Of a stretch of DNA of 64,000 bases, positions 3,515 to 19,318 are shown in pieces. The position numbers and the translations under genes were made by a program. Location: positions 1,376,001 through 1,440,000 of the forward strand of contig JBGANV010000001.1 in the NCBI GenBank assembly GCA_044222185.1. The letters are read 5' to 3'. Below the pieces are notes generated by a model. It did not search any database. It was not told where the DNA came from and saw nothing but the letters and a program-made list of their open reading frames with translations. The stretch's first letter is position 1; each line of letters opens with the position of its first letter. Source of the DNA: Planctomycetota bacterium (GTDB lineage: Bacteria; Planctomycetota; GCA-002687715; CAIWVZ01).

Positions 3515-4879
3515 CTATGACACCTGTGACCATGGCGAGGAGAAAACCAGCGACGCGGCACGCCGCATGGCAGCCGCTCCGTCGCCCGCGACGGCACCGG
3601 AGGCGGCGAGCCACGCCGCCTCCTCCCCACTCGGGTCCTCGCCACGCAGCGCACGAGTGAGTGCGACGGTCACGTCCTTGGGGCTCTTCATCGCGACTCC
3701 GGGGAAGCTCGCTCCCAGATCCAGTGGTGCGTCCGTCTTGAGGATCCGACCGTCCACGAGGTCGCTCGCGAAATTGATCCGCGCGGCCATGGACTGCGTG
3801 GAAAGCGACGCGCGTCCGAGCGGCCACCCCGCGACGTTCGGCGGCAGGAAGAGATCCTGGCCGACGCGCGGAAGGCGCCGCGCGATCTCCAACGTGCTGA
3901 CGCTCGCCGGCCCGAGGCCGAGAGGCTTCACCGATCCGACGAGGAACTCCACCGGGCCCACGACGCAGGCGTGCGCGTTGGCGTCGCTGAAGAACGCGTT
4001 GGACCTGAGGATCACCTCGATCGCACGTCCGACGTCCAGATCGTGGCTTGCGAGATAGGACGCGAGCGAGGCCCTCGCCGCGTCGGATACCACCGCCTCT
4101 CCCATGAAGTGCGCGATGAGCCGATCTGCGAGCCGTGGCGCGAGTGCGGGGTGCGCGAGCGCGATCTCGAGCACGTCCGGCATCCGAAATCGGCCTGACT
4201 TCCCCAGCACCGTCTTCGGGCCGTCGTCATGCACCGTGGGATCTTCGGCCGGAGGGCTGCCCTTGGCGCCCCAACCCGTCAACGCGCGCGCCGTCTCGCG
4301 GACGTCCGCCTCGGTGTAGTTGCCGACCCCGATCGTGAACAGCTCGAACAGCTCGCGTGCGAGATTCTCGTTGGGGCGGTCTTTCGTGTTCTCTCTTGCG
4401 TCGAGCCACTCGAGCAGAGCCGTGTCGCGCATCATGGCGTCGAGGAGCAGGCGAAACGGACCGCGTCCGAGCCTCCGCATCGTCTCGTTCTGCACCTGCA
4501 TGGCCATGAGCTTCTGGACCTTGGCCGCGCTCGTTGCGAACCAGTTGTGCCAGAACAGGGTCATTCGTTCCGCAAGCGGATGCGTTCCGAACAGCATGCG
4601 GTAGATCCACACGGCCTGGAGGCGCGGCAGATTCGCCGTGGTGACTGCGCCGTCGACGAGTCGCTGCATCAAGTCGATCGTCTCGGCCCTGGGTGGTCCG
4701 GTGCCGTTCAGGACACGCGCGATGGCCGCGTCGTGCCCATCGGCGACGTCGCGTTCCGCGACGGCAGCGGTCACACCGAACCCCGACCGCCGATGGAGGC
4801 GGACGACGCGCGCCAGGTTCCACGGTTGCTCAGCGTTCGGCGCGTACGGCTCCCAATGCTCGACGGGTGAAGAGATCAT
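3515..4879 (-). CDS. DUF1800 family protein
   Basis: ERMTLFWHNWFATS, PNENLARELFELFTIGVGNYTEADV, GQDLFLPPNVAGW; canonical pairing with the downstream DUF1501 gene. Confidence 0.92.
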   Translation of the reverse strand: MISSPVEHWEPYAPNAEQPWNLARVVRLHRRSGFGVTAAVAERDVADGHDAAIARVLNGTGPPRAETIDLMQRLVDGAVTTANLPRLQAVWIYRMLFGTHPLAERMTLFWHNWFATSAAKVQKLMAMQVQNETMRRLGRGPFRLLLDAMMRDTALLEWLDARENTKDRPNENLARELFELFTIGVGNYTEADVRETARALTGWGAKGSPPAEDPTVHDDGPKTVLGKSGRFRMPDVLEIALAHPALAPRLADRLIAHFMGEAVVSDAARASLASYLASHDLDVGRAIEVILRSNAFFSDANAHACVVGPVEFLVGSVKPLGLGPASVSTLEIARRLPRVGQDLFLPPNVAGWPLGRASLSTQSMAARINFASDLVDGRILKTDAPLDLGASFPGVAMKSPKDVTVALTRALRGEDPSGEEAAWLAASGAVAGDGAAAMRRAASLVFSSPWSQVS

Positions 4880-7800
4880 CGGCGCCTCCGCGGCGAATTG
4901 GAGACGTCGCCCGCGTCACGGGTCTCACCGGAGCGAACGAGGAAGCGTTCGCCGTAGAGCTCGTACACCACGTCCCCGACTGCGTCGAACTCGAACCGGC
5001 CGTCCGCGTCCGTCGTCCGCCACTCCTGGATGTGCATGTCCGGCGCCGCGTGGGCGCCGGATTTCAGCATCATCACGGGAATGTTCCACCCGGCGCAGGG
5101 GTTCTTCCGTTGATCCACGATCCGTCCGTGGATGCGACCGCAGGGATGGAGGACGAGGCGCGAAGGTTCGGTGGGCTCGTGGACGACCACGGTGGACCCG
5201 CCCAGGTGGCGCGCCGCATCCCGGACGATGATCTGTCGCTCCTCCCCCTTGGCGAGCCCGATGACGTCGAAGCCAGCTCCCGGAACGGCCTTGCTTCCAT
5301 AGAACAGCGGCGTCAGCCCGGTGACGAGCACGTCCGCCACGGCCGAACCGGCCTCGTCGACGACGTCGACTCGCTGCCGATTCCCGGGGTTCAGCTCGAT
5401 GGAGAGAACGACCGGAGCTGATCCCTGCGGAGGGTCCAACTTCACGATCGCGTGAGTCGTTCGAACGTCCATGGAGATCGCGTGCTCGCGGAGCCGACCA
5501 CCAGAATCGACGTCGTCTTCGAAATGCGACGGCACCTCGGTGACATAGGCATCCTCGAGCGCCACGACCGTGACGGCAGCTCGCCCGGCGACGCCGATCA
5601 CCTCGAAGTTGCCATCGAAGTCCGTCGAGAGAAGCCGGTACCCTCCGAAGTAGCCGGCCTCGCTGCCGAACCGCATGTCGCGTCGGTGCGGGTTCCCATC
5701 GAACGGCAGGTACTCGGCGCGAGCTCGAACGGGCTTGCCCGTCCCCTTCTCGACGACGCGGCCGCGGATCCGGACGCCACGTTCGAGCGACACGTCGATG
5801 CCGTCGCGTGGATCCGTGCTCCGATGGGCCAGGTCGCCGTCGCGCTGAACCCAATCCGTCCCCGGCGGCGGTATGAAGCGCACGACGCACGAATCCGTGC
5901 CCTCCGGGACACCATGGATGACGTAGTGCCCGGCCGCGTCCGTCTTCGCTTCGAAGTGAACGTCCGAGTTCGGACCATTCACGACGACCACACTGACGTC
6001 CGGAATCGGGTTGCCCGTCTTCGCCTCCGTCACCGTCCCGCGGAACGGTCGGACGGACGGAACCATGTGCGTGAAGACTGGCCCGTAGTGCTCGGCGGTC
6101 CCGTTCAAGGCCTCGGGCTGCATCATCATCGTGTCGGACATGGCAGCCTGGTAGCCGAGTCGCGTCGGTGTCGTGAGCGTCTTGTCCACGGTCACGAAGA
6201 AGCGACGGCACTCGGTTCCGGGAGCGTCGACGACCAACATGGCGCGGCGTCCACGACCGATCCCGCGGAGGACGAACCGACCGTCCGCATCCGTGACGGC
6301 CGATGGGATCACGGCGTCGAGCGACATCCCGAGGTGCAACGTCGACTCTGGAGCATCGACCCCAAAGCCGGCGGTGGGGGTTTCCGGCAAAGTGACCTCG
6401 ATGACGCGAACCCGTGCGCCCGCCCGTGGCAATCCCTCGATGTCGAGGATGCGCCCCTCGATCGGATCGTCGGCTGCGAGGAACTCGAAGTCGGCGCTGT
6501 TCCGGACCTCCGGATCGCGCACGTCACCGTACGCGATGGCGTGGCCGGGAGCGGTGGCACAGACCTTCAACCACTCGAGCGGATCCAGCGCCGCGCGTCC
6601 GTTCCGAATGGCACTGCGCGGGAGCTCGAGCCTGTACTGTCCGTGAGCGTCCGTGGTCGTGCGTCCGACGAGCCGCGTTGACGCGTAATCCGGCTCGAGC
6701 GCGAAGACCTCGGCGCCTGCGACTTCCGTACCGTCGGTCTCGCGAACGGTGCCCTGAAGCACGAATACCGGCTCGCTGGAGGGCACGTCGACGGCCGAAG
6801 CGACGAACGCGGTCCCCGTCGCGAGCGCGGTCACGAACGCCAGCGAAGCCATCACGCCGACGACGTGCCGCAGCCGCGGCGACGTCGAGAGCTCGCGGCC
6901 CCGATCGAGAAGACCGCGCACGCGCTCCTCGAGTCGCCAGCGGAGCGGGACGACGCCCATCGTCAGCGCCAACGGACGGACGTGTCCGAGCGACTGCGTC
7001 AGGTCGAGCAGCGTGCGCGCATACCCGGCTCCGGACGTCGCCTTGAGCACGAAGTTGTCGCAGGTCTCCTCGCGAGCCACGGCCAGGGCCCGGTTCATCA
7101 GGTGGATGAACGGGTGCGGCCAGAACACCGCGGCCACGATCCGCTGCGCGAAGCCCACGACGGGGTCCCGACGCATCACGTGGGCGCACTCGTGGAGCAG
7201 GACCTCGAGCCAGGCATTCGCCGAGAGTGTGCCGATGAGGGACTGCGGCACGATCACGGCGGCATTCGCGAGGCCGTGAACGAACGGGGCCCTCGTGTCC
7301 GTCGACACGAGGATCGGCGGAAGGTCCGTGCGGCCGAGACAGCTGCGAAGGCGTTCCAGCGGAAGGCCGTCGGCACTCGTCGCCGGACGTGCGGCGCTGC
7401 GAATCCTGCGTGACTGGCGGAAGCCGAATCCGAGTCGGATGAGTGCGATCGCCACGCCAGCGACCCAGACCCCGGCCATCACCACCTCGAGCGGACCGCG
7501 CCCGAGCGCTGCCGCGCCGCGAGCGCCGGGCACCGGCGATGTCGCAGGTTGGACCGCGTCCATTCGCACACACTCGTTCAGCGCGCGCGCAAAAGGCTCG
7601 TCGGTCACGGGCGGATCGCCGTCCGTGAACACCGCCGGTGTTCGCGGGTGGAATGGAAGCGAAGCTTCGGGCACTTGGGGCGACGGCGATCCGACGACGG
7701 CCGGCGCTTCGATCGCCACGCGGACCAGCGAGAGGTCGGCGTGGGCCATCGCCCAGACGAGCACCGGGACGAGGATCACTGCGCCCAACGATTGAACCCA

Positions 7801-7947
7801 GATGGAGGCCCGGAGCGCGGGTCGCCGCCGCGCGACGAGCGCGGCGGCAGCCGCCGCCACGAGGACGACGAGCGAGATGGCGACGACCATCCGCACGACG
7901 AGCCCGAGCGCGGACGACGTCAGGACCGAGTACGCGAGCGCGTTCAC
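4876..7947 (-). CDS. BlaR1/MecR1-like M56 metallopeptidase signal transducer with C-terminal carboxypeptidase-regulatory-like (Ig) domains
   Basis: N-terminal TM helices, LLHECAHVMRRD, FWPHP, REETCD; repeated G.V.D..G.P..GA.V and TDA.G.F motifs. GTG start at 7947 overlaps the repressor stop. Confidence 0.88.
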   Translation of the reverse strand: MNALAYSVLTSSALGLVVRMVVAISLVVLVAAAAAALVARRRPALRASIWVQSLGAVILVPVLVWAMAHADLSLVRVAIEAPAVVGSPSPQVPEASLPFHPRTPAVFTDGDPPVTDEPFARALNECVRMDAVQPATSPVPGARGAAALGRGPLEVVMAGVWVAGVAIALIRLGFGFRQSRRIRSAARPATSADGLPLERLRSCLGRTDLPPILVSTDTRAPFVHGLANAAVIVPQSLIGTLSANAWLEVLLHECAHVMRRDPVVGFAQRIVAAVFWPHPFIHLMNRALAVAREETCDNFVLKATSGAGYARTLLDLTQSLGHVRPLALTMGVVPLRWRLEERVRGLLDRGRELSTSPRLRHVVGVMASLAFVTALATGTAFVASAVDVPSSEPVFVLQGTVRETDGTEVAGAEVFALEPDYASTRLVGRTTTDAHGQYRLELPRSAIRNGRAALDPLEWLKVCATAPGHAIAYGDVRDPEVRNSADFEFLAADDPIEGRILDIEGLPRAGARVRVIEVTLPETPTAGFGVDAPESTLHLGMSLDAVIPSAVTDADGRFVLRGIGRGRRAMLVVDAPGTECRRFFVTVDKTLTTPTRLGYQAAMSDTMMMQPEALNGTAEHYGPVFTHMVPSVRPFRGTVTEAKTGNPIPDVSVVVVNGPNSDVHFEAKTDAAGHYVIHGVPEGTDSCVVRFIPPPGTDWVQRDGDLAHRSTDPRDGIDVSLERGVRIRGRVVEKGTGKPVRARAEYLPFDGNPHRRDMRFGSEAGYFGGYRLLSTDFDGNFEVIGVAGRAAVTVVALEDAYVTEVPSHFEDDVDSGGRLREHAISMDVRTTHAIVKLDPPQGSAPVVLSIELNPGNRQRVDVVDEAGSAVADVLVTGLTPLFYGSKAVPGAGFDVIGLAKGEERQIIVRDAARHLGGSTVVVHEPTEPSRLVLHPCGRIHGRIVDQRKNPCAGWNIPVMMLKSGAHAAPDMHIQEWRTTDADGRFEFDAVGDVVYELYGERFLVRSGETRDAGDVSNSPRRRR

Positions 7948-8363
7948 GGCCGTCCCTCCGACTTCGACCGCGCGGATCGCCCCTCGGCGTCCTCGATCAT
8001 GCGACGGATCCGCGCGGCCTCGTCGCTCTTCAGTCGCCGACCGTCGAGCAGCGCGAGGAGGAGGCCTTCCGTCGACCCCTTGAACGCCTTGTCGAGGACC
8101 CACCCCAGGAGGTTCTTGTGCGTCGTCGCCCGGGCTTCACTCGGCGAGTAGACGAATGAATTCCCGCTGCGGCGACGGGTCAGCCACCCCTTCTCTTCGA
8201 GCCGCGTCATCATCGTGAGCACCGTGTTGCGCGCGACGTCCCGACGTTTGCCGAGCGCCTGCCACACGTCCGCGACCCCCGCCTCGCCCATCTCCCAGAT
8301 CACGTCCATGATCTCGAGTTGCGCACCCGAAAGGACGTCCCGTGCCTTCTCGACCTTGCCCAT
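7944..8363 (-). CDS. BlaI/MecI/CopY family transcriptional repressor
   Basis: LSGAQLEIMDVIW, VARNTVLTMMTRLEEKGWL, FVYSP; directly upstream of the M56 gene. Confidence 0.93.
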   Translation of the reverse strand: MGKVEKARDVLSGAQLEIMDVIWEMGEAGVADVWQALGKRRDVARNTVLTMMTRLEEKGWLTRRRSGNSFVYSPSEARATTHKNLLGWVLDKAFKGSTEGLLLALLDGRRLKSDEAARIRRMIEDAEGRSARSKSEGRP

Positions 8364-8695: not shown

Positions 8696-11600
8696 ATGTC
8701 CGAACCCGTCGACACCGAACCGCTGATTTCCGACCTGTTCCGGCAGGGCCGCTTCGTGCGGTCGGTGGCGCGCGAGCTCGTCTCCGGGGCGGATCAGGAT
8801 GACGTGGTCCAGGACACGTGGCTGACGGCACTCGAACGGAAACCAGCACCGGGGCGGGGCCTCGCCGCATGGCTGAAGCGCGTCGCACGAAACCTCGCAC
8901 TGAAGACACTGCGGTCGGCGCGGCGGCGAGATGCCCGCCACGCACGCGCGGCGAGACCAGAGGCCGCCGCCGGCAGCGCCGAGCTGTCCGAGCGGGATCA
9001 ACGGCTGTGCGACGTCCTTCATGCCGTCATGTCTCTCGACGAACCATTCCGCACGGCGATCGTCCTGCGGTTCTACGAGGGCCTCACGCCAGCCGAGATC
9101 GCCGCGCGACTGAGCGTGCCTGGCGCCACGGTCCGAACACGCATCCACCGCGCACTCGAGCAGCTCCGCACACGGCTCGACGACGTTTACGGCGGCGACC
9201 GCGCCGCGTGGTCGGCGGTGCTCGTCACGCTCGCCTATCCCCAGCTTGCAGCACCCGCTGCGGCAGGCGCGGCAGCGATGCCTTTCGTTGGGAGTCTCGT
9301 CGTGGGAAAGAAGATCCTCGTCGCAACCCTGCTCCTCTGCCTCGCGGGCGTCTCGTTCATCTGGTGGACCGCGGACGAGACCAGGAACGGATCACCAGGC
9401 GACGGAGCGAACTCGGCCTCACCGAGCGCACCGGCGACGAACCCGGCCACCGAGCCGCCGCAAGACCCGTCGGCCCCTGCCGTCGTCGCGAGCCCGTTCT
9501 CCTCACCCGCGGATGACGAGACCGTGGCGTCGCAGGCCATCTCGAATCCGTCGGGCGTTCGCCTCCTGGGCCGCGTCGTCGACGAGGGCGGCAACCCCGT
9601 GCGGAACTGCCCCGTCCGCGTCCGACCCGTGTTCGACACATCGCGCGCCGGCCTGGACCGCTCCGCGCCGGCCACAGCGGACGTCTCATCGGATCAAAAT
9701 GGGCGGTTTGCCTTTCCCTCCGTGGCGGCCTTGCAACGACTGGCCGTCACGGCACGCGCGCCGCACCTGGCCGATGCGCGTTGCCAGTTCCGCACACCCG
9801 CGTCGGGCGAACTCGACCTGGGCGACCTCGTGGCTGTACAGGGTGGCGCCATCACGGGCCGGGTCGTCGATGCGACCGGAGCGCCGATCGCAGCCGCAAC
9901 CGTTGCGGCCGAGCCCGTGCGCGAGGCGGCGGCGACGACGACGACGACGGTGATGCTCATCAGCTCTCCCGCCGAGGCGTTCCGAGATGCGCGAACCGCG
10001 ACGACCGACGCCGACGGACGCTACACGCTCACGGGTCTTGCCGCAGGCGAGGCCCAAGGCCGCGCACATGGCGACCAGCATCCGGCGACGTCACGACGCG
10101 GCATCCGCGTGACACGCGGCGCGACCACTCCCGACGTCGACTTCACGCTGTCGGCGGGGATCACGATCTCCGGGATCGTGCGCGACGCGTCGGGAAAGCC
10201 GCTGGCGGATGTCCGGATCGCGACGTCGTCGAGAACGCGCGTGCTGGTCGCAGGCGGCCCTGAAGGGTCCAGTGACGTCTCGCGTCGAACGACGTCCGAT
10301 GCGGCCGGGCGCTTCACGCTGCGGGGACTGCGCGCCGGATTCGAGACCGTGAACGCGGCCAAGGCTGGATTCCGCGCCGCGTCGGTCCGCGCGCCGGAGG
10401 AGGGAAAGACCATCGCCCTCACGCTCGCCGCGGCGCCGTCGATCTTCGGCCGCTTGACCGATGGAAAGGGCGCTCCCGTGAGGGGCGCGACCGTGCGCAT
10501 CGTTCCCGCGGATGAGCAGGCGGCCGCGACGGTCACGTGGAACGGGAGCGGTCCCACATCGCGAGCGCTCGTGGGTGCCGAAGCTGCATCGCTCCTCGCT
10601 GAAGTGGATGACGGCGGGTGGTTCATCGCTCCCACGGTGATCGCGGAGTCATCCGTGGTGGTCGTCGAGTCGGTACCAGGATTCGCCGATGCCCGGTCGG
10701 CGCCCGTCACGATGAAGGGCTCGGATCGCAAACGTGTCGACGTGGTGCTCGCTCCCGAGTGCGCCATTTCCTGCACCGTGACGGATCCGGCCGGTGCCCT
10801 GGTCAACGGCGCCACCGTGAGATGGACGCTCCTTCCACAGGGCCACGCCGCCAGTGAAGCCGGCACGTCCCAAGCGCCAGCCGCCACGGGCACGGCGGAG
10901 ACTGGCTCCAACGGGACGTGCCGCGTCGGGAATCTCGTCCCCGGGACCTATGAGGTTCTGGCGATTCACTCCGACTTCTTCGATTCCAAGCCGACGACCC
11001 TCGTCCTGGCGACGCCCGGCGATACGGCCACGACTGCGCTCGCCGTCGCGCGGGGTTGCGCGGTTCAGGGGCGCGCGTTCGACGGCCACGGCCGACCGCT
11101 CTCCGGCTCGACCATCACCTTCCGCAATCTCGACGGCAACGCCGCGGAGTGGGCTCCTCCGTCCCTGCTGACGGATTCGCAGGGACGATTCGCGTCGCAC
11201 GGCCTCCGGCAGGGGCGATACGCCGCGTCGGTCCAGGTGCCGGGTCATCAAGGCGACATGTCGTTCGCCGTCCTGGCCGCGGGGATCGATGAGACCTCGG
11301 AGCCGGCCGTTCCGGCGACGCGTCCCGGCGAGGCGGCCTTCCTCGCCGACCCGGAGCGCGTCGCCGAGATCGAGCTGCGGTTGCCTCTTCCTGCGTCCGT
11401 TTCTGGCGTGGTCACGGCGGCGGGCCGACCGGTGGCCCAGGTGGAGGTCGCGTTGTCGGCGGTCACGACGCCCTCGACCTTCACGTTCGGCGATGCGCGG
11501 GTCAAGACCGATGCCCGCGGGGCGTTCTACTTCGGTTCCGTCACGGCTGGAGACTACACGTTGAAGGTCGATCCGGACGGAGCACCGCGCACGATCGAGG

Positions 11601-12304
11601 TGCCGGTGACGGTCGACGTCGGACGCGAGAGAACGGTCGACGTCGCCCTGCCCACGGGCGAGATCGAGGGCCGAATCACGGACGAACGCGGCGCGCCGAT
11701 CCCCGGCGTCGTGGTCACGGCGACCCTCGAACGGGCGCCGCAGGCACCCGGTGGCCGCGGGGCGCGGGCTCGTGTGGCTGCATTGGCGTTGACGGCAGAT
11801 CCGAGTGCCGACGACGCCGCTGGCGAGCTTCCCCTCGAGCCAGTTCTCCTCTCGCTTGGCGGGAGTTCCCCGCACGCGACGACGGATGCGCAGGGGCATT
11901 ATCGTTTCACGAACGTCGCGACCGGGTCGTGGACCGTGAAAGCCACCGAGTCGACGTTGGCATCTGCGACGAGCGCAGGAGTCACGGTCGTCGAAGGGCG
12001 AATCACGCGTGGCGTCGACCTGCGCATGTCCGCGGGCGGGACCGCGGAGATCATCGTGGACACGGGAGGGATGGCGATCTCCACGATCCACGTGAGCGCG
12101 ACGCAGACCGGCGGCGGAGACTCCAAGTCCGGGTCCGGCGATACGGACAATCCGATCCGCCTCGCGGGTCTGCGCGCGGGATCATGGCACGTCGACGCGG
12201 GCGGTTGGAGCGAGGACGGCCAGGGGAACGCGTCCGCCGACGTGGAGATCAAGGCCGGACAGACGACGCCCGTTCGACTGACGCTGCGCCGATCGAACGA
12301 CTGA
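8696..12304 (+). CDS. ECF sigma-70 factor fused via a TM helix to multiple carboxypeptidase-regulatory-like Ig domains
   Basis: DDVVQDTWL, AWLKRVARN, LRFYEGLTPAEIAARLSVPGATVRTRIHRALEQLR (regions 2 and 4), hydrophobic ILVATLLLCLAGVSFIWW, then several G.V.D..G.P repeats. Confidence 0.9.
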   Translation: MSEPVDTEPLISDLFRQGRFVRSVARELVSGADQDDVVQDTWLTALERKPAPGRGLAAWLKRVARNLALKTLRSARRRDARHARAARPEAAAGSAELSERDQRLCDVLHAVMSLDEPFRTAIVLRFYEGLTPAEIAARLSVPGATVRTRIHRALEQLRTRLDDVYGGDRAAWSAVLVTLAYPQLAAPAAAGAAAMPFVGSLVVGKKILVATLLLCLAGVSFIWWTADETRNGSPGDGANSASPSAPATNPATEPPQDPSAPAVVASPFSSPADDETVASQAISNPSGVRLLGRVVDEGGNPVRNCPVRVRPVFDTSRAGLDRSAPATADVSSDQNGRFAFPSVAALQRLAVTARAPHLADARCQFRTPASGELDLGDLVAVQGGAITGRVVDATGAPIAAATVAAEPVREAAATTTTTVMLISSPAEAFRDARTATTDADGRYTLTGLAAGEAQGRAHGDQHPATSRRGIRVTRGATTPDVDFTLSAGITISGIVRDASGKPLADVRIATSSRTRVLVAGGPEGSSDVSRRTTSDAAGRFTLRGLRAGFETVNAAKAGFRAASVRAPEEGKTIALTLAAAPSIFGRLTDGKGAPVRGATVRIVPADEQAAATVTWNGSGPTSRALVGAEAASLLAEVDDGGWFIAPTVIAESSVVVVESVPGFADARSAPVTMKGSDRKRVDVVLAPECAISCTVTDPAGALVNGATVRWTLLPQGHAASEAGTSQAPAATGTAETGSNGTCRVGNLVPGTYEVLAIHSDFFDSKPTTLVLATPGDTATTALAVARGCAVQGRAFDGHGRPLSGSTITFRNLDGNAAEWAPPSLLTDSQGRFASHGLRQGRYAASVQVPGHQGDMSFAVLAAGIDETSEPAVPATRPGEAAFLADPERVAEIELRLPLPASVSGVVTAAGRPVAQVEVALSAVTTPSTFTFGDARVKTDARGAFYFGSVTAGDYTLKVDPDGAPRTIEVPVTVDVGRERTVDVALPTGEIEGRITDERGAPIPGVVVTATLERAPQAPGGRGARARVAALALTADPSADDAAGELPLEPVLLSLGGSSPHATTDAQGHYRFTNVATGSWTVKATESTLASATSAGVTVVEGRITRGVDLRMSAGGTAEIIVDTGGMAISTIHVSATQTGGGDSKSGSGDTDNPIRLAGLRAGSWHVDAGGWSEDGQGNASADVEIKAGQTTPVRLTLRRSND

Positions 12305-13306: not shown

Positions 13307-14059
13307 ATGGGGCGATATCGACCGGACCGATTCGACTCAGGCTCGATCCTCAACACGAGCCTCAAGGTCTGGGCGTCCGCACTCCTCCCGGCGTGGCTGG
13401 TCTCGTTCGCCATGAACGCGGTCATCGGTTTGCCCATCGACCAGATCGTCCCGTTCATCCGCTGGCGGCTCGTCGCAAGCGCGGTCAAGGTATTCGTCAA
13501 CCAGGTGATCGTCGTATGCCTCACGGGAGTCGTCGCCCACCTCGTTTTCAGTCGCCAGGCGGGGACCCGGATCGCGATAGGCCGCGCGATCGGATCGGGC
13601 TTGTCGCGCCTCCACGTCCTTCTCGCCGCCGGTGCCATCACCGCGACGATCGTCACGGCCGGGATGACGGCGCTCTTGATCCCCGGAATCATCGCGCAAT
13701 GTGTGCTGTGGGTCGTCGGCCCGGTGGTCGTCGGCCCGGTGGTCGTCGGCCCGGTGGTCGTCGTCGAGGAGGTCGGAGCCCTGCAGTCGCTCAAACGCAG
13801 TGCATTCCTCACGCGCGAACGCCGCATGACGATCTTCGTGATCATGATGCTGCTCGGTCTGATCAGCATGGGCGTCGGCGTGGTCAGCGGAGGCATCGTC
13901 GCGGTCCTCGGCCGTGGGTGGGTCGCGTCACTCGCCGTCTGCGCGACCCAGGCTCTGGCGACGTCGCTCGCATGCGTCGCCACGGTCGTCGGGTACCGGG
14001 AGCTGCGGTCCAGCGTCGAGGGCCTGGAGGATCCGTCGATCGCCGAGGTCTTCGCCTGA
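13307..14059 (+). CDS. Multi-pass membrane protein (GDPD membrane-anchor/YciC-like)
   Basis: About 6 hydrophobic segments, LLIPGI, VVEEVGALQSLKRSAFLT, YRELRSSVEG; GGAGG RBS before ATG 13307. Confidence 0.7.
   Translation: MGRYRPDRFDSGSILNTSLKVWASALLPAWLVSFAMNAVIGLPIDQIVPFIRWRLVASAVKVFVNQVIVVCLTGVVAHLVFSRQAGTRIAIGRAIGSGLSRLHVLLAAGAITATIVTAGMTALLIPGIIAQCVLWVVGPVVVGPVVVGPVVVVEEVGALQSLKRSAFLTRERRMTIFVIMMLLGLISMGVGVVSGGIVAVLGRGWVASLAVCATQALATSLACVATVVGYRELRSSVEGLEDPSIAEVFA
13711..13763 (+). repeat. In-frame 15-bp tandem repeat, 3.5 copies
   Basis: GGTCGTCGGCCCGGT at 13711, 13726 and 13741 plus a partial copy; encodes VVGPV x3. Confidence 0.95.
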
Positions 14060-14153
14060 CGTCCGCGCCGCAAACTTCTTGCGGAACCTTCGAATCAAAC
14101 GAACGTATGCGAACGGCTTCGATCGTTCCGCCGAAAGGAAAACCAAGACTCTC

Positions 14154-15050
14154 ATGAACGGACGCATCACGCTCCTGCTCTCGGTCCTCATCGCCATCGG
14201 CGCCGCGGCCGGCACCACGTACTTCCTCTCCGACAAGGCGACCAAGGGCGCGCCACATCCCGTCGATGCCTCCCAGCTCGAAGTGCTCGCCAACCGGATG
14301 GCAGCCATCGAGGGGCAGAACGCCAAGCTCGAGACGACGCTGACGGAACTCAATCGGGCCATCCGTGAGGTGGCTCGCGCCGCACCCCGCGAGGTCCCGG
14401 CGGCATCGAACGCGCAGGAGGCCTCGGCCGTCGACGCGAAGACGGACAAGCCGAAGGCCGGCGATCCAGGAGCCAAGAAGAACGACGACGTGCTCACGTT
14501 GGATGCTGCGCTGAAGCGGCTCGGCGATCCGACCCTGAGCTTTCTCGATCGCGAGGAATTCTGGGGCAAGATCCGCGCGGCGGGGCTCGTCGATCAGGTG
14601 ATCGCCGACTACGAGAAGCGGGCCAAGGCCGATCCGCAGAACCCCGACCTCCAGGTCGCCCTCGCGGAGGCGTATCTGAAGAAACTGCAAGACGTCCCCG
14701 AAGGCCCGTTGAAGGGCGTGTGGGCGAACAAGGCGGACGCGGCCTATGACACCGCCCTCGCTGCGGATCCCGAGCACTGGAGCGCACGGTTCTCGAAGGC
14801 CGTGTCGCTCTCGTTCTGGCCGCCGGCGCTCGGCAAGCAGGGCGAGGCGATCAAGAACTTCGAGGTGCTTCTCTCCCAACAGGCCAACAAGACGCCGCGG
14901 CCGGAGTTCGCGCAGACGTACCTCTTCCTCGGGAACATGTACCAGCAATCCGGCCAAGGCCAGAAAGGCCTCGACACCTGGAAGGCCGGGCTGAAGCTCT
15001 TCCCCGACAACGCAGCGCTGAAGAACCAGATCGCCAACGCGCCGCACTGA
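14154..15050 (+). CDS. Membrane-anchored coiled-coil + TPR protein
   Basis: N-terminal TM segment, heptad stretch, TPR-like ADPQNPDLQVALAEAY and YLFLGNMYQQSGQGQKGLDTWKAGLKLFPDN; strong GC3 coding signal. Confidence 0.8.
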   Translation: MNGRITLLLSVLIAIGAAAGTTYFLSDKATKGAPHPVDASQLEVLANRMAAIEGQNAKLETTLTELNRAIREVARAAPREVPAASNAQEASAVDAKTDKPKAGDPGAKKNDDVLTLDAALKRLGDPTLSFLDREEFWGKIRAAGLVDQVIADYEKRAKADPQNPDLQVALAEAYLKKLQDVPEGPLKGVWANKADAAYDTALAADPEHWSARFSKAVSLSFWPPALGKQGEAIKNFEVLLSQQANKTPRPEFAQTYLFLGNMYQQSGQGQKGLDTWKAGLKLFPDNAALKNQIANAPH

Positions 15051-15174
15051 CTGCCGCCGCGAAGGTCGGCGACGGGCTGCGATCACGACCGGGTCGGGTA
15101 TCCTGGCTGCCGCGTTGGCGGCCGCCACCCCCGCCCTGGCCGGCCCGACTCCAATCGCGTCGGAGTTCCGCAGC

Positions 15175-16023
15175 ATGAGATTCTCGATCACGACCTTCCC
15201 GCTCTCGGTGGCGGTCTCGCTGCTCGTCGGCGTCGCTGGTCCGCTCCTCGGTCAGGACAAGCCCGAGACACGGCCAGCTCTTCCGCCGGTCGAACTGCCG
15301 AAAGCCGCGGCGACCCAAGCCCCCGCCAACGCCGGAGACAGCGTCACCGTCACGATCTTCCACGTCGATCAGAAGACGATCGCCTGCGCACAGCACGCCT
15401 CGACGAGCGCCTGCAGCGACATCCTGCATTGGCGGTTCCGGCTCGACGACCGCGACTACACGGCGACGGCGACACAGAATCAGGCCTTCACGGAGGCGTT
15501 GCAGAAGCACTCCGGATGGAAGCCCGGAGAGAAGCTCTGCGACAAGCGCGTGACTCTTCGAACCGACCGCCGTGCTCCCTACAGCCTCGTCCAGACGGCA
15601 ATGACGGCATTCGCGACGGCCGGACTCGCCCAGGTCGAGTTCGGTGCGATCCCGTTGGTCGGTGACAAGCCGGGGGTGATTCCAAACCCGCTTCCGACCG
15701 ACGCGGGTGACGGCGTGGCGCCCTTGGAAGTTCGCATCTCGATCAAACGAGACGCGAAGTCCCAGGAAATCCGGCGCTCGGTCGCCGGCGACGTCATTCC
15801 TCCGGGTGAGGGCAGCGACGCGGCACTCAAGAAGGCGATTCAGGCACCGCGCGACGCGGCGAAGTCACGGCCGCTCGCGGTGACGCTCGAATCCGCTGCG
15901 GATGTCCCGTGGACCGAGGTCATCCGAGTGCTCGACGTCACGCGATCCCTCGGCATCGACAAGGTCGAATTCGCGGTGGCCCCGGTGGCGCCGCCCATCC
16001 CCGAGTCGCGACGGCCCAAGTGA
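15175..16023 (+). CDS. Exported protein with two ExbD/TolR-like domains
   Basis: Signal peptide; VTLRTDRRAPYSLVQTAMTAFATAGLAQVEF and VTLESAADVPWTEVIRVLDVTRSLGIDKVEF both resemble the ExbD periplasmic fold. Confidence 0.7.
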   Translation: MRFSITTFPLSVAVSLLVGVAGPLLGQDKPETRPALPPVELPKAAATQAPANAGDSVTVTIFHVDQKTIACAQHASTSACSDILHWRFRLDDRDYTATATQNQAFTEALQKHSGWKPGEKLCDKRVTLRTDRRAPYSLVQTAMTAFATAGLAQVEFGAIPLVGDKPGVIPNPLPTDAGDGVAPLEVRISIKRDAKSQEIRRSVAGDVIPPGEGSDAALKKAIQAPRDAAKSRPLAVTLESAADVPWTEVIRVLDVTRSLGIDKVEFAVAPVAPPIPESRRPK

Positions 16024-16849
16024 AGTCCGTCCGGCCTCCCACGACGTCCGTCGCGGCGCTGATCGTCTTCGTCCTCGTCATCGTCCAGTCGTGCGGCGGC
16101 AAGTCTTGCGACGCGGTCGCGGAACTCCACGCCTCCGTCCGGTGGCTTCCGGTTTCAGCGGTGGTGCGGCCCGCTGACGAATCTCGGTGGGCGCGCGATC
16201 GGATCGCGCTCGAGCACGTGGAACCCGCGGACGACAGCTGTGGTTTCCGGCGATGGAAGCCGCGATGCACCGATCGCACGCACTGGCGCGTGGTCGTCAA
16301 CGGCCGAACGGCGAGCGCCGACGAATCGGGCCTTCGTGCGTGCGCCGAGGCCCTTTCGGCGTCAGTCCAGCACCTTCACGCGTCGGCCGTGATCGTCAGC
16401 GCGCCGGCCGACGTTCCATTCGGCGTCGTTCGTGATGTGGCGAAGATCGCGTTCGATTGCGGGCTTCATGAACTCCACGCGGAAGTTCGCGTCGCCGGCG
16501 GCTCGGAACGGGGGCTGACCCCTTCGTCCGACACGTCGATCCAACGTCGTCGCCGAGCGGGACGTGCGAGACGCCGCCGACCGTCGAGCCGCGGCTCGTG
16601 ATGACGAGGGACCCAGTGACCGGCGCGGCCTTGGTGTTTCTCGGACAGAGCCCGATCCAGGACACGCCGGAGGCCCTCCGAGCCGTGGCGGCCACAGTCC
16701 AAAGAGCGCGTGCGGCGGGGAGCGTTGAGCCGGGAGGCCGAACGGTTCTGCTCGTGGATCCGATGCCATCCATGGCGTGGGGCGAGGTCGTCCGCCTGCT
16801 GGATCCGATCCGCGCAGCCTCCGATGTCGCCTTCGAATTCGTGCGCTGA
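16020..16849 (+). pseudogene. Frameshifted double-ExbD-like lipoprotein paralogue (ORFs 16020-16601 and 16598-16849)
   Basis: Lipobox-like IVQS-C. First ExbD motif VSAPADVPFGVVRDV is in one frame and the second, LVDPMPSMAWGEVVRLLD, in another. The junction is confined to 16472-16598, near G5/C4 runs at 16510-16522. Confidence 0.6.
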
Positions 16850-16931
16850 ACGGCGGGAATCCCCGGGCCGGGCGGCGAGGATCCCGGTCGACGTGTATGC
16901 TCGCCCAACCCGATGGGGACAGGAGGCGACC

Positions 16932-17861
16932 GTGCAGCGGAGCCAAACCGACGGCAGGATCTCTCGATGGCGCGTTGCGCACCTGCGCACTCCGCATGTG
17001 GCGTTCGGGGTCTTCCTCCTGGGCGCCCTGTCGATGGCGTCCCTGGCTCAGACCGCAGCTGAATCGAAGCCCACATCCCGACCCGCCGAGCCGACGGTCG
17101 TGTTGCCGGTGTCGACGACGGTGAAGGCGACCGCTTCGCCAACACTCCCTGGCCCGATCGAGCTCACCGTGTTCCACGTGGACCCGCCGGACGAGCCATG
17201 CGAGGCGCGAGCCGAGAAGACCCACTGCCCGGAACTGGATCATTGGCGCGTCCGGCTCGGGCGAGGCGATTTCCGGATCACCTACGCCGCGATGCGGATC
17301 CTTCAGAGCGTGCTCAACGCGCAGGCCCAGCCCGAAGGACCGAGGGGCATCTCCGAACGCGTGATCGCGATGCGCGTCGACGCCGACGCGGGCTGCCTCA
17401 TCGTGCAGCGGACACGCAGGTTCTGCGCCGAAGTCGGCTTCTACAAGATCGAGTACGAGGTCGCTCAACCAGGCAGCGGCGCGATCAGTCGCGTGCAAGA
17501 CTGGTGCGAGACGAGACCCAGCCCACCAGGGGTGGCCGCGTCCGACGAGATCGGCGTCGCACTCAAGTGGAATTTCGCGCGTGAGACCCTCTCGATGAAG
17601 GTCGCTGCCGGGACCTCGGTGAGGACCCTCCTCGACACGCCCGCCGAGTGGGAGGTGCTGAAGAAACTCGTGTCGGAGAAGCACGCACTGAACCAACAGG
17701 CAAGGAAGGATGTCCCAGTCCTGATCGACGCCGACCCGAAGGTGCCGTGGGCCCAAGTCGTCCGCACCATCGACGCGATCCGATCGGTCTGCAACGCCAA
17801 GGCGACCGTGATCGGATGGGACCTCCTTCCTGGTGAGGATCTCACGAAGGAGGCGCGCTGA
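16932..17861 (+). CDS. Exported protein with two ExbD/TolR-like domains
   Basis: AGGAGG before GTG 16932; MRVDADAGCLIVQ...GFYKIEYEV and LIDADPKVPWAQVVRTIDAIR. Confidence 0.68.
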   Translation: MQRSQTDGRISRWRVAHLRTPHVAFGVFLLGALSMASLAQTAAESKPTSRPAEPTVVLPVSTTVKATASPTLPGPIELTVFHVDPPDEPCEARAEKTHCPELDHWRVRLGRGDFRITYAAMRILQSVLNAQAQPEGPRGISERVIAMRVDADAGCLIVQRTRRFCAEVGFYKIEYEVAQPGSGAISRVQDWCETRPSPPGVAASDEIGVALKWNFARETLSMKVAAGTSVRTLLDTPAEWEVLKKLVSEKHALNQQARKDVPVLIDADPKVPWAQVVRTIDAIRSVCNAKATVIGWDLLPGEDLTKEAR

Positions 17862-17874
17862 GCTCGGTGCCGCG

Positions 17875-18339
17875 TCACCCCATCGCAGCCTTCGCCCGAC
17901 GCTCCAACTCGTCCGGCGCGACGTCTTCGACGTGGGTCGCGAACCCCCACGCGTGCCCGAACGGGTCCAAGAGCTGCGCACTGCGATCACCGTAGAACTG
18001 GTTCTGCAACGGGCGGACGACCTTCGCGCCGGCGGCGACCGCTCGCGCGTGCACGGCGTCGACGTCCTTGACGTACATGTAGAGCGAGACCGGTGTCCCC
18101 CCATACGCGCTGGGGCTCTTGAAGCCGCGCTCAGGGCACTCGTCGGCGAGCATGATCATGGCGCCGAACACTCGGATCTCGGCGTGTCCGATCTTTCCGT
18201 CAGGTCCGCCCATGCGGAGGACTTCCTCCGCGCCGAACGCCTTCGCGTAGAAGTCGAGCGCCTTCGCGGCGCCGTCGATGATCAGATACGGAATCACCCC
18301 GGCGTAGCCGTCGGGGATCGGTTTCACGGGTGTCGACAT
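17875..18339 (-). CDS. VOC family (PhnB-like glyoxalase/bleomycin resistance) protein
   Basis: IPYLIIDGAAKALDFYAKAFGA, GHAEI, QFYGDRSAQLLDPFGHAW. Confidence 0.92.
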   Translation of the reverse strand: MSTPVKPIPDGYAGVIPYLIIDGAAKALDFYAKAFGAEEVLRMGGPDGKIGHAEIRVFGAMIMLADECPERGFKSPSAYGGTPVSLYMYVKDVDAVHARAVAAGAKVVRPLQNQFYGDRSAQLLDPFGHAWGFATHVEDVAPDELERRAKAAMG

Positions 18340-18409
18340 GGATGCCTCCGTCGGATGACTTCGCGTCATCCTATGGACGGGGGCGACATCTCGACGTTTC
18401 CGAGCCCGG

Positions 18410-19318
18410 TCACTTGCCGCGACGGCCCGGGAGCATCCCCAGCGCGACGTAGCGCGCGATCCGCGGATTCTCCTTCAGGCGCCGCGTGCAGTAGCCGTAC
18501 CAGTCCTTGCCGAACGGCACGTAGACGCGGACCGGATGCCCGAGCCCGAGGATGATCCGCCGCAGCTCTTCATCCACGCCGAGGAGCATCTGGAACTCGA
18601 AACGTCCCGCGGGAATCTTCAGCTCGTCGAGCAGCTGGAGAGCCTCGAACACGAGCCGTTCGTCGTGAGTCGCGATGCCGACGAACGCGCCGCCCGAGAG
18701 CATCTTGCGCAGACATCGGACGTAGTTGCGGTTGATGACGTCCGGCTGTTTCCACGCGATCGCACGCGGCTCCACGTAGATGCCCTTGCACAGGCGAAAG
18801 TGCGGCCCGACGGGAAGGAGCGCATCGATGTCCGCGGGCGTGCGGCGCAAGTAGGCCTGAAGGACGAGGCCCACGTTCTGGTAGTCCTGACGCAGACGCT
18901 TGTACACGGCGATGGTGCTGTCCGTGTACGGCGAGTTCTCCATGTCGATGCGGACGAAGTTGCCCTGATCCTTCGCGCGCTGCACGACCGTGCGGGCGTT
19001 CTGGTACCCCTGCTCGACCGACAACCCGAGGCCAAACGCCGTCAGCTTGATGGAGACGTTGGCGTCGAGCTTCTCCGATTGGATCGCATCGAGGATCCCC
19101 GAGTAGTCGACGGCGTTCTTCTTCGCCTCGGCCTCGTTGTTGACGAACTCGCCGAGAAGGTCGACCGTCGCGCGGCAGCCTTCGGAGTTCAGCCTCCGGA
19201 TCGTCGTGACGGCGTCCGCGAGCGTCTCGCCGGCGATGTAGCGATCGGCGACCTTCCGGACGAGCCCCTTGGGCAGATAGCGGACCGAGCCCGCGATCAT
19301 GCGGTCGATGGCACTCAT
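18410..19318 (-). CDS. Monofunctional proline dehydrogenase
   Basis: RYIAGET, SIKLTAFG, RIDMENS, LQAYLRRT, RLCKGIYVE, ATHDE, RVYVPFGKDWYGYCTRRLKENP. Confidence 0.95.
   Translation of the reverse strand: MSAIDRMIAGSVRYLPKGLVRKVADRYIAGETLADAVTTIRRLNSEGCRATVDLLGEFVNNEAEAKKNAVDYSGILDAIQSEKLDANVSIKLTAFGLGLSVEQGYQNARTVVQRAKDQGNFVRIDMENSPYTDSTIAVYKRLRQDYQNVGLVLQAYLRRTPADIDALLPVGPHFRLCKGIYVEPRAIAWKQPDVINRNYVRCLRKMLSGGAFVGIATHDERLVFEALQLLDELKIPAGRFEFQMLLGVDEELRRIILGLGHPVRVYVPFGKDWYGYCTRRLKENPRIARYVALGMLPGRRGK

Follow-up and report, generated by a model that had tools for sequence, protein, structure and literature searches.

Tandem double-ExbD genes in a Planctomycetota genome: predicted exported fusions of ExbD1 and ExbD2 heads

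ExbD and TolR normally carry one periplasmic domain, require an Asp in their transmembrane helix and are encoded together with ExbB or TolQ. To our knowledge, they have been studied only as membrane-anchored stator subunits. How, then, are three tandem genes to be read that each specify two ExbD-like domains and no such helix? These genes, here called A, B and C, lie in a 64,000-nucleotide stretch of the genome of a Planctomycetota bacterium (assembly GCA_044222185.1, contig JBGANV010000001.1, positions 1,376,001 to 1,440,000 of the forward strand; GC content about 67%). The whole stretch is referred to below as the window, and positions are counted from its first base. A preliminary description, made from the letters of the window alone, took the proteins for an uncharacterised family of soluble, single-chain ExbD mimics marked by a Cys/His motif and perhaps modulating Ton/Tol motors. 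We conclude that A, B and C are very probably single-chain fusions of the periplasmic heads of two different motor subunits, ExbD1 and ExbD2, in which both proton-carrying helices have been lost.

Fold and descent of the two domains

The Pfam ExbD profile (PF02472) matched protein A over two stretches (3.4e-10, 40.5 bits, cut-off 25.4 bits). Protein C gave a weak match under that cut-off (0.013, 16.0 bits), and neither piece of protein B, whose gene is frameshifted in this assembly, was matched. The TolR model of NCBIfam (TIGR02801) scored 29.6 bits, with the best stretch of A at residues 100-154; its equivalog cut-off of 127.3 bits was reached by none of the three proteins. The nearest Protein Atlas clusters were named ExbD/TolR at 0.88 and served as a lead only.

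An AlphaFold2 model of A, built with 35 relatives, had a mean predicted local distance difference test score (pLDDT) of 87.0 and a predicted template modelling score (pTM) of 0.83. In the model the order strand-strand-strand-helix-strand-helix-strand occurs twice, at residues 56-160 and 184-266, and with this pTM the two domains are predicted to pack as one rigid body, like the periplasmic dimer of TolR or ExbD. Domain 1 modelled alone, with 45 sequences, also reached a pLDDT of 87.0. Both models were compared with 48,161 chains using VIA-align. E. coli TolR (5BY4) was the top match in each case and the only one above Z 8: Z 9.9 for the whole model (root mean square deviation 3.5 Å, 97 of 105 residues, model range 39-270) and Z 9.7 for domain 1 (deviation 2.9, 85 residues). 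The next matches of domain 1 were H. influenzae TolR (Z 6.6) and E. coli ExbD (Z 5.7), both of which also appeared in the list for the whole model. A Foldseek search of the Protein Data Bank with the whole model returned nothing at E ≤ 0.001. Its top rows, a SAVED domain receptor and HIV reverse transcriptase, were dismissed at TM scores of 0.16-0.23; ExbD 8PEK stood at rank 45 (probability 1.00, TM 0.66 on the target, E 0.036). The proposal that each protein holds two ExbD-like domains was borne out by structure prediction and fold search, which placed the TolR fold in both halves of A, and by sequence matches for the domains of B and C.

Strings resembling V-x-L-P precede domain 1 in A, B and C and, judged by eye, domain 2 in 15 of 35 double-domain relatives. 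The sequence alignment of domain 2 with TolR (E 0.0057) starts at the residue that follows the TolR membrane helix and takes in the V-x-L-P segment. In the A model, the TolR alignment begins as early as residue 39, and residues 43-47 and 167-170 form short strands; by this evidence the V-E-L-P and P-L-P segments may pack in the manner of the strand that closes TolR/ExbD dimers. The available text of a bioRxiv study describes the V45/V47/L49/P50 motif of ExbD as essential (10.1101/797811).

The N-termini are signal-like in A and C and lipobox-like in B, and the P-x-x-D motif of the membrane helix is found in none of the three, as the preliminary description had held. Protein C in particular begins with an Arg-rich n-region and a hydrophobic core followed by a cleavage-like site, ASLA/QT. 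A, B and C are therefore predicted to be exported through a Sec or lipoprotein signal that replaces the Asp helix.

The genome also encodes a canonical motor, and comparison with it indicated where the two domains come from. The motor cluster (G000:C1:1238-1256 kb, locus L047) lies outside the window, about 145 kb upstream of gene A. It consists, in order, of a sigma-54 response regulator, a 545-residue protein (P0152), two TPR proteins, ExbB, ExbD1 (188 residues), ExbD2 (156 residues) and two unannotated proteins (574 and 343 residues), with the ExbB-ExbD1-ExbD2 core at G000:C1:1246.0-1248.1 kb. Both ExbD proteins have the Asp helix; ExbD1 carries an H-x8-C-x8-C-x4-HWR loop and ExbD2 does not. 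Domain 1 matched this ExbD1 (A 1.6e-16, C 8e-6, B 4.8e-6), as against E 0.4 to 5 for ExbD2. Domain 2 matched ExbD2 (A 1.2e-11, C 1.5e-8, B 3.5e-4) and gave no match to ExbD1 at E ≤ 10. A profile of 35 double-domain proteins found matches in 201 of 301 genomes of the phylum; among the matches listed, its halves mostly fell on adjacent separate genes, at profile positions 5-148 and then 145-251. Because domain 1 matches ExbD1 and domain 2 matches ExbD2, the products of adjacent anchored genes, we read the proteins as single-chain copies of the ExbD1/ExbD2 heads. The earlier label of a single-chain pseudo-dimeric ExbD is a fair one, since both halves have the ExbD fold, the Asp helix is gone, an export signal is present and ExbB is absent from the neighbourhood; a still more exact term is pseudo-heterodimer, made of ExbD1 and ExbD2 heads.

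The design differs from that of each known system it resembles. TolR, the best fold match, has one domain per chain, forms a dimer of identical chains, has its Asp helix in TolQ and is encoded beside tolQ, whereas A, B and C each place two different domains in one exported chain, with no Asp helix and no tolQ or exbB near. The ExbD dimer (8PEK) has the same fold, and A, B and C retain, ahead of domain 1, strings that resemble its V-x-L-P closing strand. However, ExbD is a homodimer that, in the available text of Zinke 2024 (PMC10771500), switches between closed and open states on the motor, and the doubles are single chains. Like the canonical ExbB-ExbD1-ExbD2 motor, A, B and C pair an ExbD1-type domain bearing an H..C..C..HW loop with an ExbD2-type domain, but in the motor these are separate genes, each with its Asp helix, while A, B and C are fused, helix-less and encoded about 145 kb away.

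The Cys/His loop, the double family and the toroid fusions

The three motif strings reported for A, B and C were present as given, with the identical spacing H-x7-C-x8-C-x4-HWR. None of 200,000 shuffles of protein A contained H-x7-C-x8-C-x4-HW, and the strings are not explained by chance. In the A model the loop, with H63, C71, C80 and H85, runs from a strand at residues 56-63 through a short helix at 72-75 to a strand at 86-90, with a pLDDT of 88-96.

To place the loop we relied on an exhaustive HMMER search of 1.84 billion representatives, which gave 224 hits; the counts below cover the best 150 (clusters at 50% identity). A word-index search with A had recovered only A itself, one protein among 3887 candidates. 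The motif, written H-x(2-12)-C-x(5-20)-C-x4-HW, was found in 110 of the 150 and was absent from 40. Among the 110 carriers, 79 had C-x8-C, 33 had H-x7-C and 30 had Arg after HW, and the spacing from His to Cys ranged from 3 to 12 residues. The exact spacing shared by A, B and C is thus no more than the modal spacing of the family, and the final Arg is not conserved. All 27 proteins with an Asp-helix string carried the motif, and all 27 were single-domain forms. In alignments of 35 and 45 relatives H, C, C, H and W were the only invariant columns, and in 21 anchored ExbD1 proteins the helix Asp (D21) was invariant along with them; the rows of all these alignments had been chosen for the motif.

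The same loop was followed through 77 named loci found with an ExbD1 alignment, 76 with titles of Planctomycetota lineages and one of Casimicrobiaceae. ExbB lay upstream of ExbD1 in 73 of these loci and ExbD2 downstream in 73. The strict motif was present in 62, a longer loop in 7 more, and no motif in 8 (L114, L117, L118, L120, L121, L122, L124 and L125). In these eight both Cys and the second His are lost and the Trp is kept. Because they are lost together, the sequences suggest that the two Cys and the second His act as one joint site, either a disulfide plus His or a metal site. The Casimicrobiaceae title belongs to locus L091, a 2,634-base contig of a metagenome-assembled genome with a planctomycete-type ExbB-ExbD1(motif)-ExbD2 order; it is probably a mis-binned contig. 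The H..C-x8-C-x4-HW loop is a signature of membrane-anchored Planctomycetota ExbD1 (all 27 Asp-helix forms; 69 of the 77 named loci) and not a property special to soluble doubles. The idea that the motif marks a soluble family has to be given up: it is a general feature of the ordinary anchored ExbD1 proteins of the phylum, including this genome's own ExbD1 beside ExbB.

What does set A, B and C apart is their architecture. In a local HMM scan, both domains stood in one chain in 89 of the 150 relatives, and none of these 89 doubles had an Asp-helix string. Of the doubles, 70 were no longer than 330 residues (46 with signal-like N-termini, 12 lipobox-like, 12 unclear or truncated) and 19 were longer. 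Doubles without the motif exist, for example P0004 and P0011. The exported double-ExbD design is, as far as sequence can tell, widespread. We do not class the doubles with functional ExbD motor subunits, since tests for the Asp helix and for linkage to ExbB found neither. One of them, P0017, is nevertheless named 'biopolymer transport protein ExbD' by its own source.

The genome itself holds five doubles: A, B, C, a 299-residue copy on contig C14 and a 661-residue copy on contig C7. The C14 paralogue (G000:C14:145516-146415; L046:8516-9415) has a lipobox-like LGAC and reads H-x7-C-x8-C-x4-HHR, with His for the otherwise invariant Trp. A, B and C share only about 22% pairwise identity. In a domain-1 tree of 112 rows they formed no clade; B grouped with P0115 and P0141 (98/80), and at least one double, P0014, was nested inside anchored ExbD1 with support of 100/97. 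Each of A, B and C was closer to relatives in other genomes than to its own array. Among the genomes in which doubles in a single open reading frame (ORF) were looked at, G197, G144, G213, G051, G163 and G077 also hold split ExbD1- and ExbD2-type matches.

Two further features of the family were observed. P0052, P0076, P0148 and P0066 place ExbD-type domains after a cytoplasmic N-terminal segment (about 55-120 residues) and a membrane helix, a layout that recalls anti-sigma or sensor proteins; Pfam found only ExbD in P0052, P0076 and P0148. The last residue is Lys or Arg in most doubles (most rows of alignment A2) and in several anchored ExbD1 proteins: A ends in ..RRPK, C in ..KEAR and the genome's ExbD1 in ..AQPK.

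The longer doubles include fusions to a second kind of head. The C7 paralogue (G000:C7:557665-558438 region; L005:355-2340, minus strand) joins a signal and a double ExbD module, with the motif H-x7-C-x10-C-x4-HWR, to a squalene-cyclase-like toroid C-terminal to domain 2. P0067 (655 residues) also carries this toroid family. These proteins share with A, B and C the signal, the ExbD1-type domain and the ExbD2-type domain, and differ in the C-terminal toroid, as A, B and C end directly after domain 2. Many further matches, among those listed, covered profile positions of about 65-250 in frames of 500-760 residues in many genomes of the phylum.

The toroid leads back to the motor cluster. In P0152 a His-bearing membrane helix is followed by an acidic, Gly-rich, disordered linker (about 130 residues) and then by a squalene-cyclase-like toroid as head; by its sequence the protein looks like a TonB/TolA-like transducer with a toroid head. 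The C7 toroid and the head of P0152 are 44% identical over 358 residues (E 5e-111). The same toroid protein was encoded within 4 kb downstream of ExbD2 in 14 of the 77 named loci, and its N-terminal His helix was conserved in 12 aligned sequences.

Neither the exported or tandem ExbD domains nor the toroid fusions were found described in the literature searched on ExbD in planctomycetes, on ExbD-like, TolR-like and ExbD domains, and on ExbD combined with prenyltransferases and cyclases. The 'ExbD domains' of PMC6851124, in the text available, belong to an ordinary TonB/ExbB/ExbD operon. The domain family and the heterologous ExbD pair are known already.

The locus and its neighbourhood

A, B and C lie in tandem on the plus strand after a TPR gene (Table 1), and the stop of A overlaps the GTG start of B (GTGA, 16020-16023). 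The ORF of the TPR gene is open from 13914, and the start given in the table is our choice. A scan of positions 13800-18500 for promoters and terminators found none.

Table 1. Coordinates of the double-ExbD locus within the window.
Feature	Position	Strand	Description
Upstream TPR protein gene	14145..15050	+	TPR_17 and TPR_14 matches; N-terminal hydrophobic anchor, coiled region, TPR repeats
Gene A, 282 residues	15175..16023	+	Signal-like N-terminus, V-E-L-P strand, domain 1 (ExbD1-type, residues about 55-165), P-L-P linker, domain 2 (ExbD2-type, about 180-270)
Motif of A, HVDQKTIACAQHASTSACSDILHWR	15361..15435	+	Beta1-beta2 loop of domain 1
Gene B first part, true frame	16020..16518	+	GTG start, lipobox-like signal (IVQSC), domain 1
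Motif of B, HVEPADDSCGFRRWKPRCTDRTHWR	16215..16289	+	
Frameshift site of gene B	16517..16519	+	Relatives have one more base behind 16518
Gene B second part, other frame	16520..16849	+	Linker and domain 2; profile positions 163-275, E 2.7e-32
Gene C, 309 residues (P0003 on record)	16932..17861	+	GTG start 16932; two domains; self match to the profile, E 1.5e-145
Motif of C, HVDPPDEPCEARAEKTHCPELDHWR	17175..17249	+	

Gene B is interrupted. Past about 16518 its frame runs into Arg-rich, out-of-register text with a stop at 16601, and domain 2 continues in another frame. As assembled, the only access to the second part is from an internal GTG/ATG at 16598, and the product would have no signal peptide. 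In three sequencing runs from another study (X2, X3 and X5; a strain a few percent different) one contig each had an extra base behind 16518, which restores B: 499 + 1 + 331 bases make 277 codons, that is, 276 codons plus the stop. Nine of the 18 strain differences within B were silent. Because run X1 agrees with the window at the frameshift at a depth of 24.6, the frameshift looks real in this strain; X1 is a possible source of the DNA and does not count as an independent witness. In this strain, gene B was most likely broken only recently. The count of three tandem paralogues is thus correct as to the tandem order and the shared strand, but B is not one ORF, and the array therefore comprises two intact genes, A and C, and one frameshifted gene.

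The absence of ExbB and TonB from the neighbourhood was confirmed. None of the six PF01618 matches in the genome fell inside the window; the closest, at C1:1246482, was about 130 kb ahead of its start, and the only TonB_C match was on contig C14, beside a classical ExbB/ExbD pair. A tblastn search with the genome's ExbB found nothing in the 64-kb window, nor in eight double-bearing loci of 10-18 kb, two of this genome and six of others, and recovered the control cluster at 3e-157. Pfam was run on 64 ORFs of these eight loci, drawn from 87 composition-filtered ORFs and three added target ORFs; those left out were three overlapping ORFs judged spurious, a set of ORFs most of which lay over about 5 kb away from the target, and a few that were short. 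No MotA_ExbB match was found among the 64.

The suggestion that the upstream TPR protein belongs to the system fared poorly. An adjacent TPR gene was present in none of the six loci from other genomes (one was 4 kb off, on the other strand), and the upstream TPR protein had no similarity to the TPR protein beside ExbB in the motor cluster (E 0.4).

Elsewhere in the window, a 1202-residue ORF (8696-12304, plus strand) joins an ECF-type sigma factor (Sigma70 regions 2 and 4), a membrane segment and eight CarboxypepD_reg-like repeats; from its sequence it reads as a sigma factor fused to what would normally be its own anti-sigma or sensor part. On the minus strand, a 1075-residue BlaR1-type M56 peptidase is fused to CarboxypepD_reg repeats (4876-8103) and adjoins a DUF1800 protein (3515-4879).

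Possible roles of a free motor head

Such a protein can neither take a place in an ExbB pentamer nor carry protons, and the double head would therefore be a motor-independent copy of the motor's head. In the available text of Zinke 2024 (PMC10771500), the dimer of ExbD heads is strand-swapped and is closed by residues 44-49, a strand whose place in the inter-protomer groove is taken by the disordered region of TonB. By analogy, we tentatively propose that the free double head would engage TonB-like transducers of the phylum, at their disordered arm or at their head, as a decoy or regulator or as an adaptor. Transducers so bound would be either titrated off the motor or statically held, and the fusion of the double module to a toroid would be a locked form of the contact between head and transducer. 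Taken as a whole, an identity as ExbD1/ExbD2 head fusions together with action as a mimic of the motor head falls somewhat short of an even chance. The most specific form of the proposal is a doubtful one: that free ExbD1-ExbD2 heads are periplasmic regulators of 5:2 proton motors which capture the transducer's arm or toroid head and so switch output off or park the transducer, the toroid fusions being the permanently engaged form.

Several results weigh against a role as a transducer-binding head mimic. A fusion is an association in one chain and not proof that free forms bind a free toroid protein. Of the 35 doubles, only those 15 show an evident V-x-L-P-like string before domain 2; in A this string is partial and in C degenerate. 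In the eight loci examined the neighbours of doubles are unrelated from locus to locus, and since the doubles have no conserved neighbours there is no operon logic for any partner. The nearest sampled kin (three genomes of the same family and two of the same order) hold split pairs only, so the function of the doubles is dispensable. One of the three tandem copies is broken here, and with 52 of 109 inner branches open the tree does not settle whether doubles arose once or several times.

Instead of dealing with motors or transducers, the doubles may be static peptidoglycan-binding or envelope-tethering proteins, with the affinity of TolR/ExbD heads for peptidoglycan put to a new use and the lipoprotein forms tying membrane to wall. 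ExbD heads are described as touching peptidoglycan in the available text of PMC10771500, and the best fold match of A is TolR. The lipobox-like signals of B and of 12 of the 89 doubles, and the variable genomic context, would suit a stand-alone structural protein of this kind. However, the same text describes the contact of ExbD with peptidoglycan as transient. The retained pairing of ExbD1 and ExbD2 heads and the ExbD1 loop suggest that partner-specific surfaces have been kept, and the recurrent fusion to the transducer's toroid head points to the partners of the motor. We consider a purely wall-binding module unlikely.

The preliminary description had also raised a His2Cys2 metal site. If the set bound zinc or another metal, the proteins would be periplasmic metal sensors or buffers. 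The invariance of H, C, C and H in 35 doubles and 21 anchored ExbD1 proteins (rows chosen for the motif) and the joint loss of both Cys and the second His, with the Trp retained, in 8 of 77 ExbD1 loci are compatible with such a site. The same residues, however, occur in ordinary motor ExbD1 and so are no novelty of the soluble family; the motif is missing from 40 of the best 150 relatives, the doubles P0004 and P0011 among them; the His-to-Cys spacing is as variable as 3 to 12 residues; and C-x8-C in an exported protein is equally explained by a disulfide staple of the beta1-beta2 loop. A role in metal sensing or buffering is improbable on this evidence.

Functionless decay is a little less probable again. 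The doubles would then be leftovers of duplicated ExbD1-ExbD2 pairs that had lost their helices, as the frameshift in B, the absence of doubles from the five genomes of close kin, the lack of conserved context and the score of C under the Pfam cut-off might indicate. Yet 89 of the best 150 clusters at 50% identity are doubles with export signals. A, B and C fold or align confidently at about 22% identity, and the closest relatives of each are found in other genomes, not beside it in the array. B itself is intact in three runs of another study, with half of its strain differences (9 of 18) silent.

It is very improbable that the doubles are still motor parts whose N-terminal helix stays uncleaved and, inserted in an ExbB-type pentamer, takes the place of the ExbD pair or blocks it: the cleavage site of A is poor by the -3/-1 rule (LLG/QD; our reading), the topology is the same as that of ExbD and ExbB-family genes with no adjacent ExbD match found exist at C7:265454, C15:298760 and C4:26755, but all 89 doubles lack the Asp and the P-x-x-D motif, each chain has one helix whereas two enter the pentamer, a good cleavage site (ASLA/QT) is present in C and a lipobox in B, and the N-terminal 30 residues of A were modelled at a pLDDT of only 50-54.

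How ExbD and TolR heads open, bind TonB or TolA and contact the wall is an active question. In this large natural family of exported, covalently joined ExbD1-ExbD2 heads, a monodisperse heterodimer is already at hand with which the structure and binding of the little-known planctomycete motors can be studied, and the toroid fusions give independent support to the view that the toroid-headed protein of the motor operon works with ExbD heads. The label 'biopolymer transport protein ExbD' that annotation pipelines attach to doubles can be corrected, as doubles cannot be motor subunits. The doubles are candidate natural regulators or decoys of planctomycete motors. If they do regulate 5:2 motors, stator heads would for the first time have been found to give rise, in nature, to a soluble antagonist or adaptor of their own motor.

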